From: an archaeon
GTDB taxonomy: Archaea > Iainarchaeota > Iainarchaeia > Iainarchaeales > 1-14-0-10-31-34
NCBI GenBank assembly: GCA_043819075.1
Contig: JBDRFE010000004.1
Span: 1 to 20,618 of the forward strand
Length of the DNA stretch: 20,618 bases
Direction of reading: 5' to 3'
Shown here: positions 2,255 through 18,800 of the stretch, in pieces
Position numbering within the stretch: position 1 is the stretch's first letter
How the letters are laid out: each line of letters opens with the position of its first letter
The notes under the pieces: model-generated
The model's database searches: none
What the model was told of the DNA's origin: nothing
Seen by the model: the letters and a program-made list of their open reading frames with translations, nothing else
Translations under genes and position numbers: made by a program

Positions 2255-2434
2255 ATGATAAAAAAATCTTTGATTCAGGGACTGTATATCATGATATTGC
2301 TGTATCTTGCAGTAATTTTTCTTAACATATTGGGAATACAGGCATTTGATTATTCACCTTTGTTCAGTTCACAGGGAATGCTGTTGTTTTACATTTTCAT
2401 TTCCATCGGAACCTTAATGTTCATGAGAATTTAA
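2255..2434 (+). CDS. Small two-TM membrane protein B2 (59 aa; absent from the ORF track)
   Basis: Hand translation: MIKKSLIQGLYIMILLYLAVIFLNILGIQAFDYSPLFSSQGMLLFYIFISIGTLMFMRI. Matches B1 (LNxxGI, SxxG, IS, FMRx) and sits in the same position after an A gene. Confidence 0.75.
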   Translation: MIKKSLIQGLYIMILLYLAVIFLNILGIQAFDYSPLFSSQGMLLFYIFISIGTLMFMRI

Positions 2435-2465
2435 TAAAAAAAGTCATGTTTTCAGGTTAATCCCT

Positions 2466-2698
2466 CCTTTTCTTTTTGGGCAACAAATACTTTTTCTTTC
2501 TTCAGGCAACACCTTTTTCTTTTTGGGCAAGCATTTTCTTTCTTTGGGCACTACTAAAACTTTTTGGTTTTAGTGTGCATTTAATTCCTTGTGGAATTAA
2601 ATTGCAACTTGCACTTTCTTTCTTTTGGAACAACATGAAACCAAAGGTTTCATGTGCATCAGGAAATTTATTTCCTGATGAAGAAAGAAAGGGCAGAG
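2466..2698. repeat. Structured intergenic repeat element, expanded copy
   Basis: Five degenerate TTTTCTTT(C)TT-GG(G)CAAC units. Four perfect hairpins (2553-2574, 2579-2602, 2633-2655, 2657-2680) and a closing stem 2614-2624/2681-2691. Shares three blocks with 13198-13256. Confidence 0.8.
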
Positions 2699-2735
2699 TT
2701 AATCTTATTAATTTCATAAAACTAATTCTAATAGA

Positions 2736-3668
2736 ATGAAAAAAATAATTTTCGCACTGGCCTTGCTGGTTTTGTTCAGCGGCTGCATTGGATACTTTGA
2801 ATCAGCAGAAAAAACAAGCACTTTTGAAATAGGAAAAGAAAAAATTTCCACAGAAATTTATTATGAGGGAGGGCTTTCAGAAAAAGGAAAAGCAGTTGAA
2901 GACTGTACAAAAGAATTAAAGGAATTGTTCCCTTCAGCTGAAGCTGGATTAGAGGCAAACATAAACAACCCGGATGAAAAAGAAAGGGAATTAGTTAAAG
3001 CAAAATTACTGTTTTTAAGGGAAATAAAAGCTTCAGTTAAATGCACACTGGAAAAAGAAGGGCTTTTAGGAAAACTTACAATAAGGTTTGAGAATTCAAG
3101 GGAAACAGTGAAAAAATTAAGCGGGCTTGCACCACAGGAAGGCTTTGTTTTAACTGACATCAACAAAGAATATTCTTTTCTGCTGATAAAAAAAGAAACA
3201 AAAGATTATTTCTCTGAAAAAATAACCAAAGAAAATCTGAAAATAAAAATTGACGGCGAAACAATTGAAGTTGTCCCAGACAGTTTTTCAATAAAAGACT
3301 CTTTCATCCAGTTCCAGGACACAAAAAACTTTGACGTGAATTTCATTAAAATGGAATTCAGGGAAGAAAAGCCGGTTGAATTCCCTTTTGTCCTTGTTGC
3401 AGCAGGTTTTATTGTATTAATTGCATTAAGCGTGATTTTTGTCATATGGAGGCAGAGAAAACCTGAAGAAATATTTGAGAAATCAGAGGAAGAAATAAAA
3501 AACAAGATGAAAAAAGAATTAGTTAACGGATTAGGCACAACAGAAATACAGATACTCAGCGTGGAAAGGGTTCCGGATGGCTTTGAAACAGAAGTAATAA
3601 TTAAAACAAGAAAATACAATATTTCTTTTAACTCAAAAGGCGAGTTAATGAACTATATAAGAATTTAA
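2736..3668 (+). CDS. Putative lipoprotein with a C-terminal TM helix and small C-terminal domain
   Basis: MKK, hydrophobic core and lipobox-like LFSGC; TM segment FPFVLVAAGFIVLIALSVIFVIW followed by RQRK. Confidence 0.75.
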   Translation: MKKIIFALALLVLFSGCIGYFESAEKTSTFEIGKEKISTEIYYEGGLSEKGKAVEDCTKELKELFPSAEAGLEANINNPDEKERELVKAKLLFLREIKASVKCTLEKEGLLGKLTIRFENSRETVKKLSGLAPQEGFVLTDINKEYSFLLIKKETKDYFSEKITKENLKIKIDGETIEVVPDSFSIKDSFIQFQDTKNFDVNFIKMEFREEKPVEFPFVLVAAGFIVLIALSVIFVIWRQRKPEEIFEKSEEEIKNKMKKELVNGLGTTEIQILSVERVPDGFETEVIIKTRKYNISFNSKGELMNYIRI

Positions 3669-13129: not shown

Positions 13130-13264
13130 ATGGACAGCACACTAAAAACTTTAACTGAAATGGAAAACATCTTTTTTCAAGAAAGGAATTATGTTCCTTT
13201 TCTTTCTTTGGGCAACCTGCACTTTCTTTCTTTAAGAAAAGAAAGAAAGGGCGGAGGTGAATGA
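13130..13264 (+). CDS. Unannotated 44-aa small ORF, possible leader peptide upstream of rps12
   Basis: AGGTGA SD at 13119-13124, 5-nt spacer, ATG 13130. Encodes [44 protein letters not shown]; stop 1 nt before the rps12 ATG. Confidence 0.45.
13196..13256. repeat. Structured repeat element, short copy, with a 12-bp hairpin
   Basis: CTTTCTTTCTTT-AAGA-AAAGAAAGAAAG at 13222-13249. Blocks match 2534-2550 (17/17), 2604-2625 (21/22) and 2681-2698 (17/18). Confidence 0.8.
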
Positions 13265-13265
13265 T

Positions 13266-15221
13266 ATGGCAAGAGGAGAATTCAGCGCAAAAAGCCTGCA
13301 GAAAAAAAGAAAGAAATGGAAAAAAAAGAACCCGAAAGAAAAATTGAGGGCAAAAAGAAAAATTAAAAAACTAAAAGACATAATGGAAGGCTCTCCACAG
13401 GCAAGAGGAATTGTGCTGGAAAAAAGAGGGGTAACAGCAAGACAGCCAAACTCTGGAATAAGAAAATGTGTTTCTCCAGAAACGAAAGTTCACTTGCATG
13501 ATGGTTGTGTAATGCAAATCAATGAAATGAAAAATAACTGGAATCAAATAACAGTTCAGTGCTTTGACAAAAATAAAAAAGAAGTTATTCCAACTGAAAT
13601 TACAGATTGGTTTGAAGTTAAAGAGGATTACGGCCAAGTATTTGAAATTAGGACAGCTGAAACCAAAAGAGTGCTAAAAGCTTCTGGAGACCACCCAATT
13701 TACACAGCGAGGAAAAAAATTGATTTAAAGGATTTAAAAGTTGGAGACAAAGTCGCAGTGATGCCTGGCAATCCAGTGGAATTCAAAGAAACAAATAAAG
13801 TAATCTTAACCGAAAATGAAATAAGAAAAAACGCTGAAAAAACAATAAAAATTGAACGAGTCATAACAGAGCTGGAAAAAAAGAATCTTTTGCCCCTTAA
13901 TCTGAACAATAAATTAATGCCAAAATTAATTAGGATAATAGGGCATTTATTTGGCGACGGAACATTAAGCTGGGGAAAATCAGGCACAGGATATGGCGGA
14001 AAAATGGTTTTCAGTGGAAGTGAAGAAGAATTAAAGGAAATCAGAAGGGATACAGAAGCTTTGGGGTTAAAAATTTCCCCTATACAAAAACAAAAAAGGG
14101 AAAGTATAGTGGAAATGAACGGAAAAAAACATTTAATTAAGGGAACTAGTTTGTCTTTTAGTTGTACTTCAGTAGCTTTTTATACTTTGCTTAAAAATCT
14201 GGGAGTTCCTATAGGAGATAAAGCGAATTCAAAATATTTGCTTCCCACTTGGATTAAAAATGGACCAATGTGGGCCAAAGAAGAATTCATATCAACATAT
14301 TTTGGATCAGAACTGGAGAAACCCAGATTAGTGAACAAAACTTTTCAGCCGCCATGCTTAAACATAAGCAAAACAGAAAAAACATTAGAAAGCGGGAAAA
14401 AAATGATGAAAGACATTGAAGAAATACTGAAAGAATTCGGGGTAAAAGCTTCTTTACTTAAAACAGAAAAATACGCTCAAAGAAAAGACGGAACAAACTG
14501 TTACAGAAACTTGCTCTATATTAAATCAGGCCATGAAAACTTGATGAACTTATTCGGAAAAATTGGCTACAAGTACAGCCCAAAAAAGGAAGCTTTGGCC
14601 AGATATGCTTACCAGTATCTAACAATTAAAACAAACAAAATGAAAGAAGAGCAAAAAGCTTTTGAAAAAGCAATTGAACTAAGAGAACAGGGGCTAACAA
14701 TCAAGAAAATAACTGAAGAACTTAATAATACAGGCTTTGCCCAAATAAAAAAAGCAAGAGTTAATTACTGGATTTCTTGCGGAGTAAAAGAAAAAGAAAA
14801 AATAGGTTCAACATCCAAAGAAACTGGCTTAAATCAATGGATAAAAGAAAACACTAAAGGGTTAGAAAACAGTGGCCTTGTATGGGAAACAATAAAAGAA
14901 ATAAAACCAATCAAAAACCAGATTTTAATGGATATAACAACAAAAAACACAAACCATAATTTTTTTGCAAACGGGTTCCTTACAGGAAACTGTGTTAGAG
15001 TTCAGTTAATCAAAAACGGAAAACAATTAACCGCTTTAGCACCATTTGACGGTGCAATAAAATTCATTGACGAACACGACGAAGTGTTAATTGAAGGTGG
15101 CGGCGGAAGAAAAAAAGGGGCAAAAGGAGACTTGTGGGGAGTCAAATTCAAGGTAATTAAAGTAAACAACCAGTCATTAGAAATGCTTAGAACAGGCAGA
15201 AAAGAAAAAGTTAAAAGGTAA
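13266..15221 (+). CDS. rps12: 30S ribosomal protein uS12 precursor containing an intein (spliced product 143 aa)
   Basis: N-extein ...[27 protein letters not shown]-extein [11 protein letters not shown]...[12 protein letters not shown]...; GGAGGTGA SD at 13253-13260 supports ATG 13266. Confidence 0.96.
13467..14990 (+). mobile_element. Intein (508 aa) with LAGLIDADG-type endonuclease domain in uS12
   Basis: Starts CVSPETKV; block B ASGDHPIY; block [10 protein letters not shown]; block [23 protein letters not shown]; Cys at +1. Removal restores [13 protein letters not shown]. Confidence 0.95.
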
Positions 15222-15878: not shown

Positions 15879-18800
15879 ATAAGCAAAAGAGAAGACGTTG
15901 CAAGAGAAGCACAAAAATTCATGAACACCAGGGAAAACATAAGAAATATTGGTGTTGTTGCACACATTGACCACGGAAAATGCATAAGCGGGAAAACAAG
16001 CATACTTCTTGAGAATGGAAGAATCCAGAAAGCAGAGGATTTATTTAAGTTATCTGAAAAAGGAAAAAAAGTAAAAGAAAACAAGAATGAAATAGTTTTT
16101 GATGTATCAAATTTAAATGAAAAAGTCTTAAGCTTTAATAAAAACAAAAAAGAAATTACTTCAAATAGGATTACGCATGTATGGAAGCTTAAAACAGATG
16201 AAGAATTGGTTAATTTAACTTTTTCAAATGGCTCTAAAATTAAAACAACTCCTGAACATAAGTTTCTTTTATTAAGTGAACAAGGAAAAATTTTTGAAAA
16301 ACAAGCAAAAGAAGTAGAATTAAATGATTTTGTCCTAGTTCCAAAATTTATCAAAACAAAGCCAATGAATTTAGATAAATTAAAGAAAAATATTCTGGAA
16401 AATCTTGCAAAAGACAATAGTTTTTTTATAAGATTAAATGACAGGAATTCACTGGAAATCAAAAGAAAAATTCTTGATTACGGGTTAGAAAAAACACGAA
16501 AAGAAGTTGAATCAAAACTGAAAAACAAATCCTTCTATCACGGAGCATACAACGGAAGATACAGGCTTCAAGACTTCAAAAAAATCTGCGAAAAATTTGG
16601 TTATGAATGCTTTGAATTAATTGAATCAATTAATTACAGGGAAAGCCTGAAAAAAGAAGGGCATTCATCGATTGACTTGAAACTTCCCAAAACCGAATAC
16701 GAATTCACTGACTTCATGTATTTGCTTGGATTGATTTGGGGTGACGGGGGAAAATGCGGGAAAGAAATCAGGATAACAAACGAAGACAGGCAAATAATTG
16801 AAGAAACAAAAAAAATAATGCAAAAAATATTCGGTGTTAAAGCTGTCGAAAGAAAATACAAAAACAAAGCAACAAGAATTGATTTGAAAGCAGGGCTTAC
16901 TTTCCTGAGAATACTGGAAAAAGCATTTGATTTTCCCTTAAAAAACAAATCAGAAAGCATTGAAATCCCAAAAACAGTTCAGTGTTCCTCAAATGAACTG
17001 CTTAAAGCATTTATTCAAGGATACTTTGATTCAGACGGAACAGTGGAAAAATCAAGAAGAGCAATCAGCTTAAGCTCAAAATCAGCCAAAATAATGGAGC
17101 AGCTCAGATTAAGCCTTTTAAGATTTAGTTGCATGGCAACATTCAACGAAAAAAAGAAAACTATTTATATTTCAGGAACAAACCTGAAAGTTTTTTCTGA
17201 AGAAATCGGCTTCAGACTGAAAAGAAAACAAGAAAAAGCATTAAAGTTTGCAGCAATTTCCCAGACAAACCGGAACACTGATTTACTGCCTCTTTCAGGC
17301 AAAGTTCTGAAAGAAATAAGAAAAGAACTGGAGATTCCATTGAATGCATTCAAAAAAACACAAGAAGTGATTGAATCAGGCAAGCAAAAAATCTATGCAT
17401 TAAATTTCAGAGAATTTATTTCTACTGTTTATTCTTTTGTAGGAAACCCGAAAATAAAAAATCCTGAAGCATGGAAAAAAATACAGGAAATTGAAAAAAC
17501 ATTATTTGATTGCACAACCTTGTTTGTTACAAAAAAAGAATATGAAAAAGAAGAATTTGTTTTTGATTTCAGCGTTGAAAAAACACACAACTTTATAGGC
17601 AATGGCTTAATAATTCACAACACCACAATGACAGACAACTTAATTGCAGCTTCAGGAATAATTTCAACTGAATTAGCAGGAAAACAGCAGTTCATGGACT
17701 ATTATGCATTAGAACAGGAAAGAGGAATAACAATCAATGCAGCAAATGTTTCTATAGTTCAAAAATACGAAGGAAAAGACTATTTGATTAACATAATTGA
17801 CACTCCAGGCCATATTGATTTTGGAGGAGAAGTAATCAGGGCAATGAGAGCAGTAGACGGAGTCATTTTAGTTGTTGACTCAGTTGAAGGAGTAATGCCT
17901 CAGACAGAAACAGTCATCAGGCAGTCATTAAAAGAAAACGTAAAGCCATGCTTGTTCATAAACAAAGTTGACAGGTTAGTAAATGAGTTACAATTAACAC
18001 CGGAAAAAATGCAGGAAAGGTTTGTAAAAACAATTACTCATGTCAACAGATTAATTGAAAGAAATGCTCCTGAAAAATTCAAGGAAAAATGGAAAGTAAA
18101 AGTAGAAGACGGTTCAGTTGTATTTGGTTCAGCTTATTATAACTGGGCAATATCAACTCTGCACATGAAAAAAACCGGAATAACCTTCAAAGAAGTATAT
18201 GATTACTGCAAAAACCAGGACCAGAAAACCTTGTCACAAAAAAGCTCTTTATATGAAGCAATAGTTGAATTAGTGATAAAACATCTTCCAAATCCGTTGG
18301 AAGCACAAAAATACAGGATACCAAAAATCTGGACAGGCGAACTTGAAAGCGAAGAAGGAAAAGCAATGCTTGAATGCAATGCACAAGGGCCTTTAGCAAT
18401 GATGATAGTTGACATCAGCGTTGACCCGCACGCAGGAGATGTTGCAACAGGAAGAATTTACTCCGGAACAGTAAAAAAAGGAACAATAGTGAAATTAATT
18501 GGTTCACAAAAAGAAATCGGAGTACAGCAAGTAGCATTATTTATGGGCCCAGAAAGAGTGCAGGTAAGCGAGGTTCCAGCAGGAAACATTGCTGCTTTGG
18601 TGGGCTTAAAAGAAGTTTATGCCGGAGAAACAATTTCTACTATAAAAATGAAGGAATTTGAAAGCTTTATGTCAACAGCAGAACCAGTAATAACTGTTTC
18701 AGTTGAAGCAAAAGAAGCAAAAAATTTGCCGAAATTAATTGAAGTAATAAGGCAGATAACAAAAGAAGACCCAAATGTCAGGGCAGCAATAAACCAGGAT

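Follow-up and report, generated by a model that had tools for sequence, protein, structure and literature searches.

A class-1 intein in the ribosomal protein uS12 gene of an Iainarchaeales archaeon and its relatives in other archaea

Few inteins are known from the core of the translation machinery. The supplement of PMC4760082 (Novikova et al., 2016) lists four aEF-2 inteins and a single uS12 case, the latter as 'Rps12P, 1, COG0048, Crenarchaeota' with Caldivirga maquilingensis marked; its Rps12P rows hold a count of 1, with no site, sequence or discussion. Ribosomal protein S12 adjoins the decoding bases, according to the accessible part of PMC3884664. A search of the openly accessible literature returned no paper devoted to uS12 inteins. 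Here we describe an intein in the rps12 gene of an archaeon of the Iainarchaeales (assembly GCA_043819075.1), found within a window of 20,618 nucleotides, the whole stretch of contig JBDRFE010000004.1 that was analysed. The first-pass annotation of this window knew of no described intein in a ribosomal protein, a claim that the C. maquilingensis entry in the PMC4760082 supplement overturns; the intein is another member of a listed, apparently uncharacterised uS12 allele.

We consider the insert to be, with high probability, a selfish class-1 intein with a homing endonuclease, long resident in archaeal rps12 and most likely splicing constitutively, a reading that fits the parasite model as given in the accessible parts of PMC2814812 and PMC10643990 and for which the Pfam intein matches in 14 source-genome ORFs besides uS12 also count. 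The precursor would be translated and Cys1 would form a thioester with Lys-1, after which Cys+1 would take over the N-extein, Asn508 would cyclise without a penultimate His, and the normal 143-aa uS12 would be released for the small subunit. The LAGLIDADG domain would cut empty rps12 alleles, into which the intein would be copied by gene conversion; the site would be used because it is very conserved and essential and provides the Cys. We infer splicing, endonuclease activity and homing from residues, fold and distribution.

The interrupted rps12 gene and its junctions

The rps12 gene of the window (Table 1; arrows mark insertion points) sits in a rpoH-B''-B'-A'-A''-L30e-nusA-S12-S7-EF2 cluster, that is, an archaeal RNA-polymerase plus str cluster as read from the window with Pfam, and has GGAGGTG at 13253-13259 upstream of its ATG. 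The first-pass annotation had described a 508-aa Cys...Asn intein splitting a 143-aa uS12 (67 + 76 aa once the intein is removed) between PNSGIRK and CVRVQL, and this description is borne out by the ORF, by Pfam and TIGR models and by mapping to solved uS12. On the precursor, Pfam finds Intein_splicing (51.6 bits, cut-off 35.8) and Ribosom_S12_S23, and the intein end models TIGR01445 and TIGR01443 score above their cut-offs. The exteins map to adjoining residues of solved uS12 chains (9o17_AO 1-66 and 67-142; 11hg_RR 5-68 and 69-141), leaving neither gaps nor repeated residues in the host sequence. The insertion point, here called site a, lies six residues past the Pro of the PNS loop, so that the location beside the decoding-centre loop also holds; the Pro and Ser of this PNSA loop presumably have a role in decoding. 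With Cys1, Asn508 followed by Cys+1, and an in-frame insert whose removal restores the host protein, the insert is a genuine class-1 intein.

Table 1. Features of the interrupted rps12 gene and of the aEF-2 intein (window coordinates)
Feature	Position	Strand	Basis or remark
rps12 (uS12) precursor ORF	13266..15221	+	651 aa plus stop
N-extein, 67 aa, C-terminal end QPNSGIRK (Lys-1)	13266..13466	+	translation; mapping to solved uS12
Intein, 508 aa (CVSPETKV ... [12 protein letters not shown] at the C-terminal end), site a (K↓C), RtcB-related family; Cys1, Gly507-Asn508	13467..14990	+	Pfam, TIGR models, 52-allele alignment
Block B, S-G-D-H (intein Ser73, His76)	13683..13694	+	alignment; His76 kept in at least 95% of 52 alleles
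First LAGLIDADG motif, IIGHLFGDG (Asp164)	13935..13961	+	motif by inspection; endonuclease fold by Foldseek
Second LAGLIDADG motif, FISTYFGSE (Glu282)	14286..14312	+	motif by inspection
Helix-turn-helix-like pair 3' of the endonuclease	14700..14783	+	predicted model; HTH_28 match in family member L077
Blocks F and G, Asp489 ... His497-Asn-Phe ... Thr-Gly-Asn508	14931..14990	+	52-allele alignment
C-extein, 76 aa, from Cys+1 (CVRVQL; [10 protein letters not shown])	14991..15218	+	translation; mapping to solved uS12
aEF-2 intein, 547 aa, LAGLIDADG, HGK↓C...HN↓TT	15981..17621	+	Pfam; separate from the uS12 intein

In a genome assembly of 75 contigs that is 90.55% complete, the interrupted gene might be suspected of being an assembly chimera or a dead copy, the functional rps12 lying elsewhere. 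However, both junctions are spanned by assembled contigs (not raw reads) from public runs, including those of a second study: the 5' junction in all four runs compared, with 0 differences, and the 3' junction in runs X1 (0 differences) and X2 (1 difference), of which X1 may be the source sample and X2 comes from the other study. Site a is moreover occupied in 52 distinct alleles, and the window's rps12 lies in a normal operon with an open frame under purifying selection; we therefore regard a chimera or dead copy as vanishingly improbable. Empty rps12 contigs in X2, X4 and X5, three of the four carrier-containing runs, omit exactly 13467-14990; for the two compared in detail, mismatches number 51 in 351 bases and 21 in 213, which identifies them as empty alleles of relatives. 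A search for a second, intein-free rps12 across the 90.55% complete genome found none. With this sole copy, mature uS12 should need splicing, as had been proposed for small-subunit assembly at the outset; an insertion of this size (508 residues), placed at the foot of the decoding loop, should not be tolerated in a functional subunit, and the unspliced precursor would be unable to work in the ribosome.

Several other features of the window and its genome deserve mention. The aEF-2 intein, two genes downstream of rps12 and directly past the P-loop Lys, is of the kind listed in the supplement of PMC4760082. Between nusA and rps12 (13196-13256) lies a hairpin-forming repeat of about 60 nt, possibly a REP-like or miniature mobile element; at least 11 further copies lie elsewhere in the genome, on contigs other than the window's, and many similar repeats are present in metagenome contigs. 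Two similar-looking hydrophobic ORFs in tandem, each of 120 aa (1344-1706 and 1887-2249), have no Pfam match. The ORFs with Pfam intein matches elsewhere in the genome, with the loci L130 (G000:C75:7693-9216), L131 (G000:C2:70896-74054) and L132 (G000:C29:41565-43886) among them (G000 being the source genome), encode, for example, an IscU/NifU-like protein, a subunit of the A/V-ATPase alpha/beta family and a MinD/ParA ATPase.

Splicing residues, endonuclease and the question of redox gating

The anatomy was examined in an alignment of the 52 distinct full-length site-a alleles, from which nine partial site-a proteins were left out and in which P0014 (a fusion) and P0018 were not counted. Cys1, the terminal Asn, Cys+1 and Lys-1 are invariant (52/52), and the block F Asp and His are conserved; the class-1 features named in the accessible text of PMC4031507 are present as S73-G-D-H76 in block B and Asp489 in block F. 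The Cys...Asn ends noted in the first-pass annotation are therefore correct, but that annotation overlooked the Gly that stands in place of the penultimate His. This His, usual though not required in class-1 inteins, is absent from all alleles, in which the penultimate residue is Gly (38), Ser (12) or Lys (2). PMC4031507 puts at about 5% the share of functional inteins in which this position is not His.

Since both nucleophiles are Cys, it had also been suggested that a Cys1-Cys+1 disulfide gates splicing by redox state. A domesticated switch of this sort, in which the disulfide (or metal binding) would hold the precursor under stress and so gate small-subunit assembly, would agree with the age of the allele and its retention in many lineages, and with disulfide-sensitive splicing in other inteins, as described in the accessible parts of PMC4031507 and PMC10663303 (the MoaA trap). 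The MoaA trap uses an N-extein Cys near the junction (PMC10663303, same part), whereas the 67-aa N-extein of uS12 has no Cys. Furthermore, Cys+1 occurs in 63 of the 65 intein-free uS12 sequences examined (duplicates included) and in 102 of 114 alleles of the intein's family in other genes; as an ordinary host residue and the family norm it needs no special explanation. Sister genomes live without the intein, inteins at a second site in the same loop (site b, below) have Ser+1, and the Cys residues inside the intein are 4-56% conserved among the 52 alleles. The gate, though chemically possible, is unsupported as an adaptation, and we judge the domesticated switch improbable; we are equally doubtful that uS12 splicing would serve as a conditional assembly checkpoint, with redox or metal state setting the rate of working small subunits in single and double carriers. 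The Cys1-Cys+1 disulfide precedent reportedly belongs to a PolII intein. We thus retain constitutive splicing as the preferred reading.

Two LAGLIDADG motifs with their catalytic acids, recognised by inspection, together with an endonuclease fold matched by Foldseek to I-DmoI and PI-PfuI, characterise the insert as a putative LAGLIDADG homing intein. Both acids are retained in 47 of the 52 alleles, at 35-77% identity to the window's allele. In two Caldivirga alleles (L007, L010) the acids have been lost together with a deletion, and both of these dead-endonuclease alleles also lack the helix-turn-helix-like pair, a candidate DNA-binding helper. The fold comes from AlphaFold2, which gave a pLDDT of 41 for a single-sequence intein model and 84 for a 52-row precursor model, used instead; the latter best matches the endonuclease-bearing inteins TliVMA, PI-PfuI and PI-SceI in Foldseek, with I-DmoI matched as well. 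The low confidence of its uS12 halves (34-77 per block) was not accepted as a sign of precursor misfolding. The Pfam LAGLIDADG models did not match the uS12 intein, and neither did any PDB entry in a sequence search with the intein.

Family, distribution and descent

The intein matches positions 95-577 of the NCBIfam model NF038162 (E 2e-90) and shares with this RtcB-related family a length of about 500 aa, its motifs and the preference for Cys+1, while the other members occupy other hosts and sites: RtcB, RpoB'', RpoA', Pus10, aRF1, a tRNA synthetase, thioredoxin, and HerA-like and other ATPases. The RtcB intein of the source genome itself is 31% identical to the uS12 intein. When compared with 23 alleles from other hosts, the 51 uS12 alleles longer than 440 aa fall into a single clade (value of 99 in the tree). 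Family alleles in RpoB'' (GPQ↓C), RpoA', Pus10 and aRF1 (L057-L062, L064, L087; P0144, P0147, P0148, P0151, P0192) in several cases share an operon with rps12, and P0143 has two family inteins within RtcB, 25 residues apart. In thioredoxins the family occupies W↓C(G/P)PC, with the first active-site Cys as +1 (L077:1279-3126; P0196, P0224, P0227, P0250, P0262); these alleles are better candidates than uS12 for redox-linked splicing. The source genome also contains a free-standing frame of 395 aa (L133, G000:C60:29603-30790), 27-29% identical to the endonuclease part of the intein and devoid of splicing ends, and similar frames of 350-440 aa are present in several relatives.

The search for uS12 inteins across archaeal proteins and genomes that the first-pass annotation had called for recovered the 52 full-length site-a alleles, patchily spread over several archaeal phyla (DPANN groups, Thermoproteota and other archaea). 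Its patterns were archaeal. In a first protein search 17 of 20 matches were site-a proteins, and a second search gave many more. A junction scan of GTDB genomes yielded 17 loci, 15 of them true and two (L002, L005) chance matches. The titles of the 15 name Ca. Iainarchaeum, Micrarchaeota, Woesearchaeota, Aenigmatarchaeota, Methanobacteriota, Methanosarcinales, Caldivirga and uncultured archaea; the Methanosarcinales title (L009) is doubtful, as its extein groups with a Woesearchaeota-titled one. Another carrier (P0037) is named as Hadarchaeaceae. Among sampled, incomplete genomes, the intein is found in two of six of the window's genus and, of the 191 in its class that gave an rps12 match, in nine (one a partial case), and in the family of G201 in five of 30 incomplete genomes, one of the 30 being too short to tell. 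Four genomes with two matches (G087, G051, G045, G073) reflect contig breaks or weak matches and not inteins. A scan of viral contigs gave 0 empty and 0 occupied sites. Given this spread, ribosome building in the carriers should depend on protein splicing. The database names of intein-bearing rps12 genes are often wrong (RtcB, hypothetical), and sets of ribosomal markers can be corrupted as a result.

On an extein tree of 102 rows and 121 columns, including selected empty alleles, intein presence changes 16 times, with at least nine changes forced, and the extein nearest to the window's is that of the intein-free genome G025 (value of 99). Intact alleles, dead endonucleases (L007, L010), a mini-intein (P0040, 175 aa) and empty sites were all encountered; patchy presence together with this decay series is what a homing parasite would show and speaks for homing. 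The intein tree broadly tracks host groups, with the window's allele among those titled Iainarchaeum/Diapherotrites. For deep cross-lineage transfer, AU tests did not reject vertical descent (two tests, p 0.49 and 0.19), and no co-conversion signal was evident by eye in flanking DNA near saturation. The best reading of the site-a intein is an old allele that would be cycling on within lineages.

The agreement between intein tree and hosts could also be explained by an immobile relic that splices but homes no more, inherited vertically with occasional precise loss. For a single close pair, G000 and G122, the intein dS (1.01) equals that of host genes (0.91-0.99), as the relic would require, and this pair bears no direct sign of recent homing. 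The second motif, GSE-L and not canonical DADG, and the failure of the Pfam LAGLIDADG models point the same way. Against the relic stand both catalytic acids, kept in most alleles in spite of their divergence, and the repeated precise loss without re-invasion that it entails, which established intein biology makes unlikely. In the family of G201, moreover, the G226 intein is as close to that of G207 (80%) as the G209 intein is (78%), although the G226 exteins are more distant, which may hint at mobility and is suggestive only. The endonuclease dN/dS of 0.11 is no proof of activity, because the dead pair G201/G202 has 0.18. Altogether we hold an immobile relic to be very unlikely and keep to the selfish, homing intein.

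A second insertion site and comparison with known inteins

Outside the window, the protein P0010 has another insert, five residues upstream of site a and within the loop itself (QPN↓C...SHN↓SAIRK). This site-b intein, with Cys1, T-x-N-H, terminal His-Asn and Ser+1, has no similarity to the window's intein and no match among Pfam intein models; judged by its sequence, it represents an unrelated family, inserted within the PNSA loop (PN↓S). The Atlas clusters closest to it are either viral or bear intein names, which we regard as a lead only. A metagenome scan for site-b DNA gave five loci, two of them in rps12 context (L092, 228 aa, 2322-3005; L090, 153 aa, 63-521), the other three (L088, L089, L091) being degenerate uS12-like pieces without an intein, which were dropped. 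The protein search returned nine proteins from 585 candidates, all of them uS12: P0130 and P0132 have the mini form at site b alone; P0136 and P0137 have a longer, endonuclease-like middle, with a weak LAGLIDADG match in P0137; P0131, P0133, P0134 and P0135 are complete with inteins at both sites, and P0129 is a partial double. At position +1 of site a, P0137 carries Ala, a residue that should preclude a site-a intein.

In the four complete doubles the middle extein reads SAMRK or SGLRK, and removal of both inteins leaves 145 aa. The double carriers are known from protein records alone; for P0131 the records name 10 contigs, which come from two sources, and a survey of 401 genomes in the class to which G205 belongs turned up neither site-b nor double alleles. 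The site-a inteins of the doubles form a long-branched group in the intein tree, for which a separate invasion looked possible; one origin was not rejected (p 0.75), the constrained tree being the better one. We consider it highly likely that the two-site, double-intein anatomy is real and splices. Such a uS12 would have to be spliced twice, on either side of five residues of the decoding loop. The double alleles would offer a compact natural experiment on the order of splicing and on homing endonucleases facing overlapping targets. A search of the openly accessible literature found no paper on the site-b intein or on double uS12 inteins.

The doubles resemble the Haloferax MCM-a/MCM-d pair, in which, according to the accessible part of PMC10643990, two inteins occupy one essential gene and doubles likewise coexist with singles. 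They differ from it in that the middle extein of uS12 is only five residues (15 bp), so that the target sites each reach across the insertion point of the other intein. With the C. maquilingensis Rps12P/RpsL intein of the PMC4760082 supplement, the window's intein shares the host protein. In the Caldivirga-named alleles L007 and L010 the intein is likewise inserted at this K↓C site and shares a clade with that of the window, which suggests that the listed C. maquilingensis intein would occupy this site too; their endonuclease is dead, whereas that of the window's allele, 37% identical to them, is intact. In architecture, finally, the uS12 intein is like TliVMA (7qss), PI-PfuI (1dq3) and PI-SceI (1vde) in combining a Hint domain with a two-motif LAGLIDADG fold (Foldseek E 1.6e-16 to 4e-10), and is distinguished from these inteins by an identity of 10-16%, an extra helical region past the endonuclease and the penultimate Gly.
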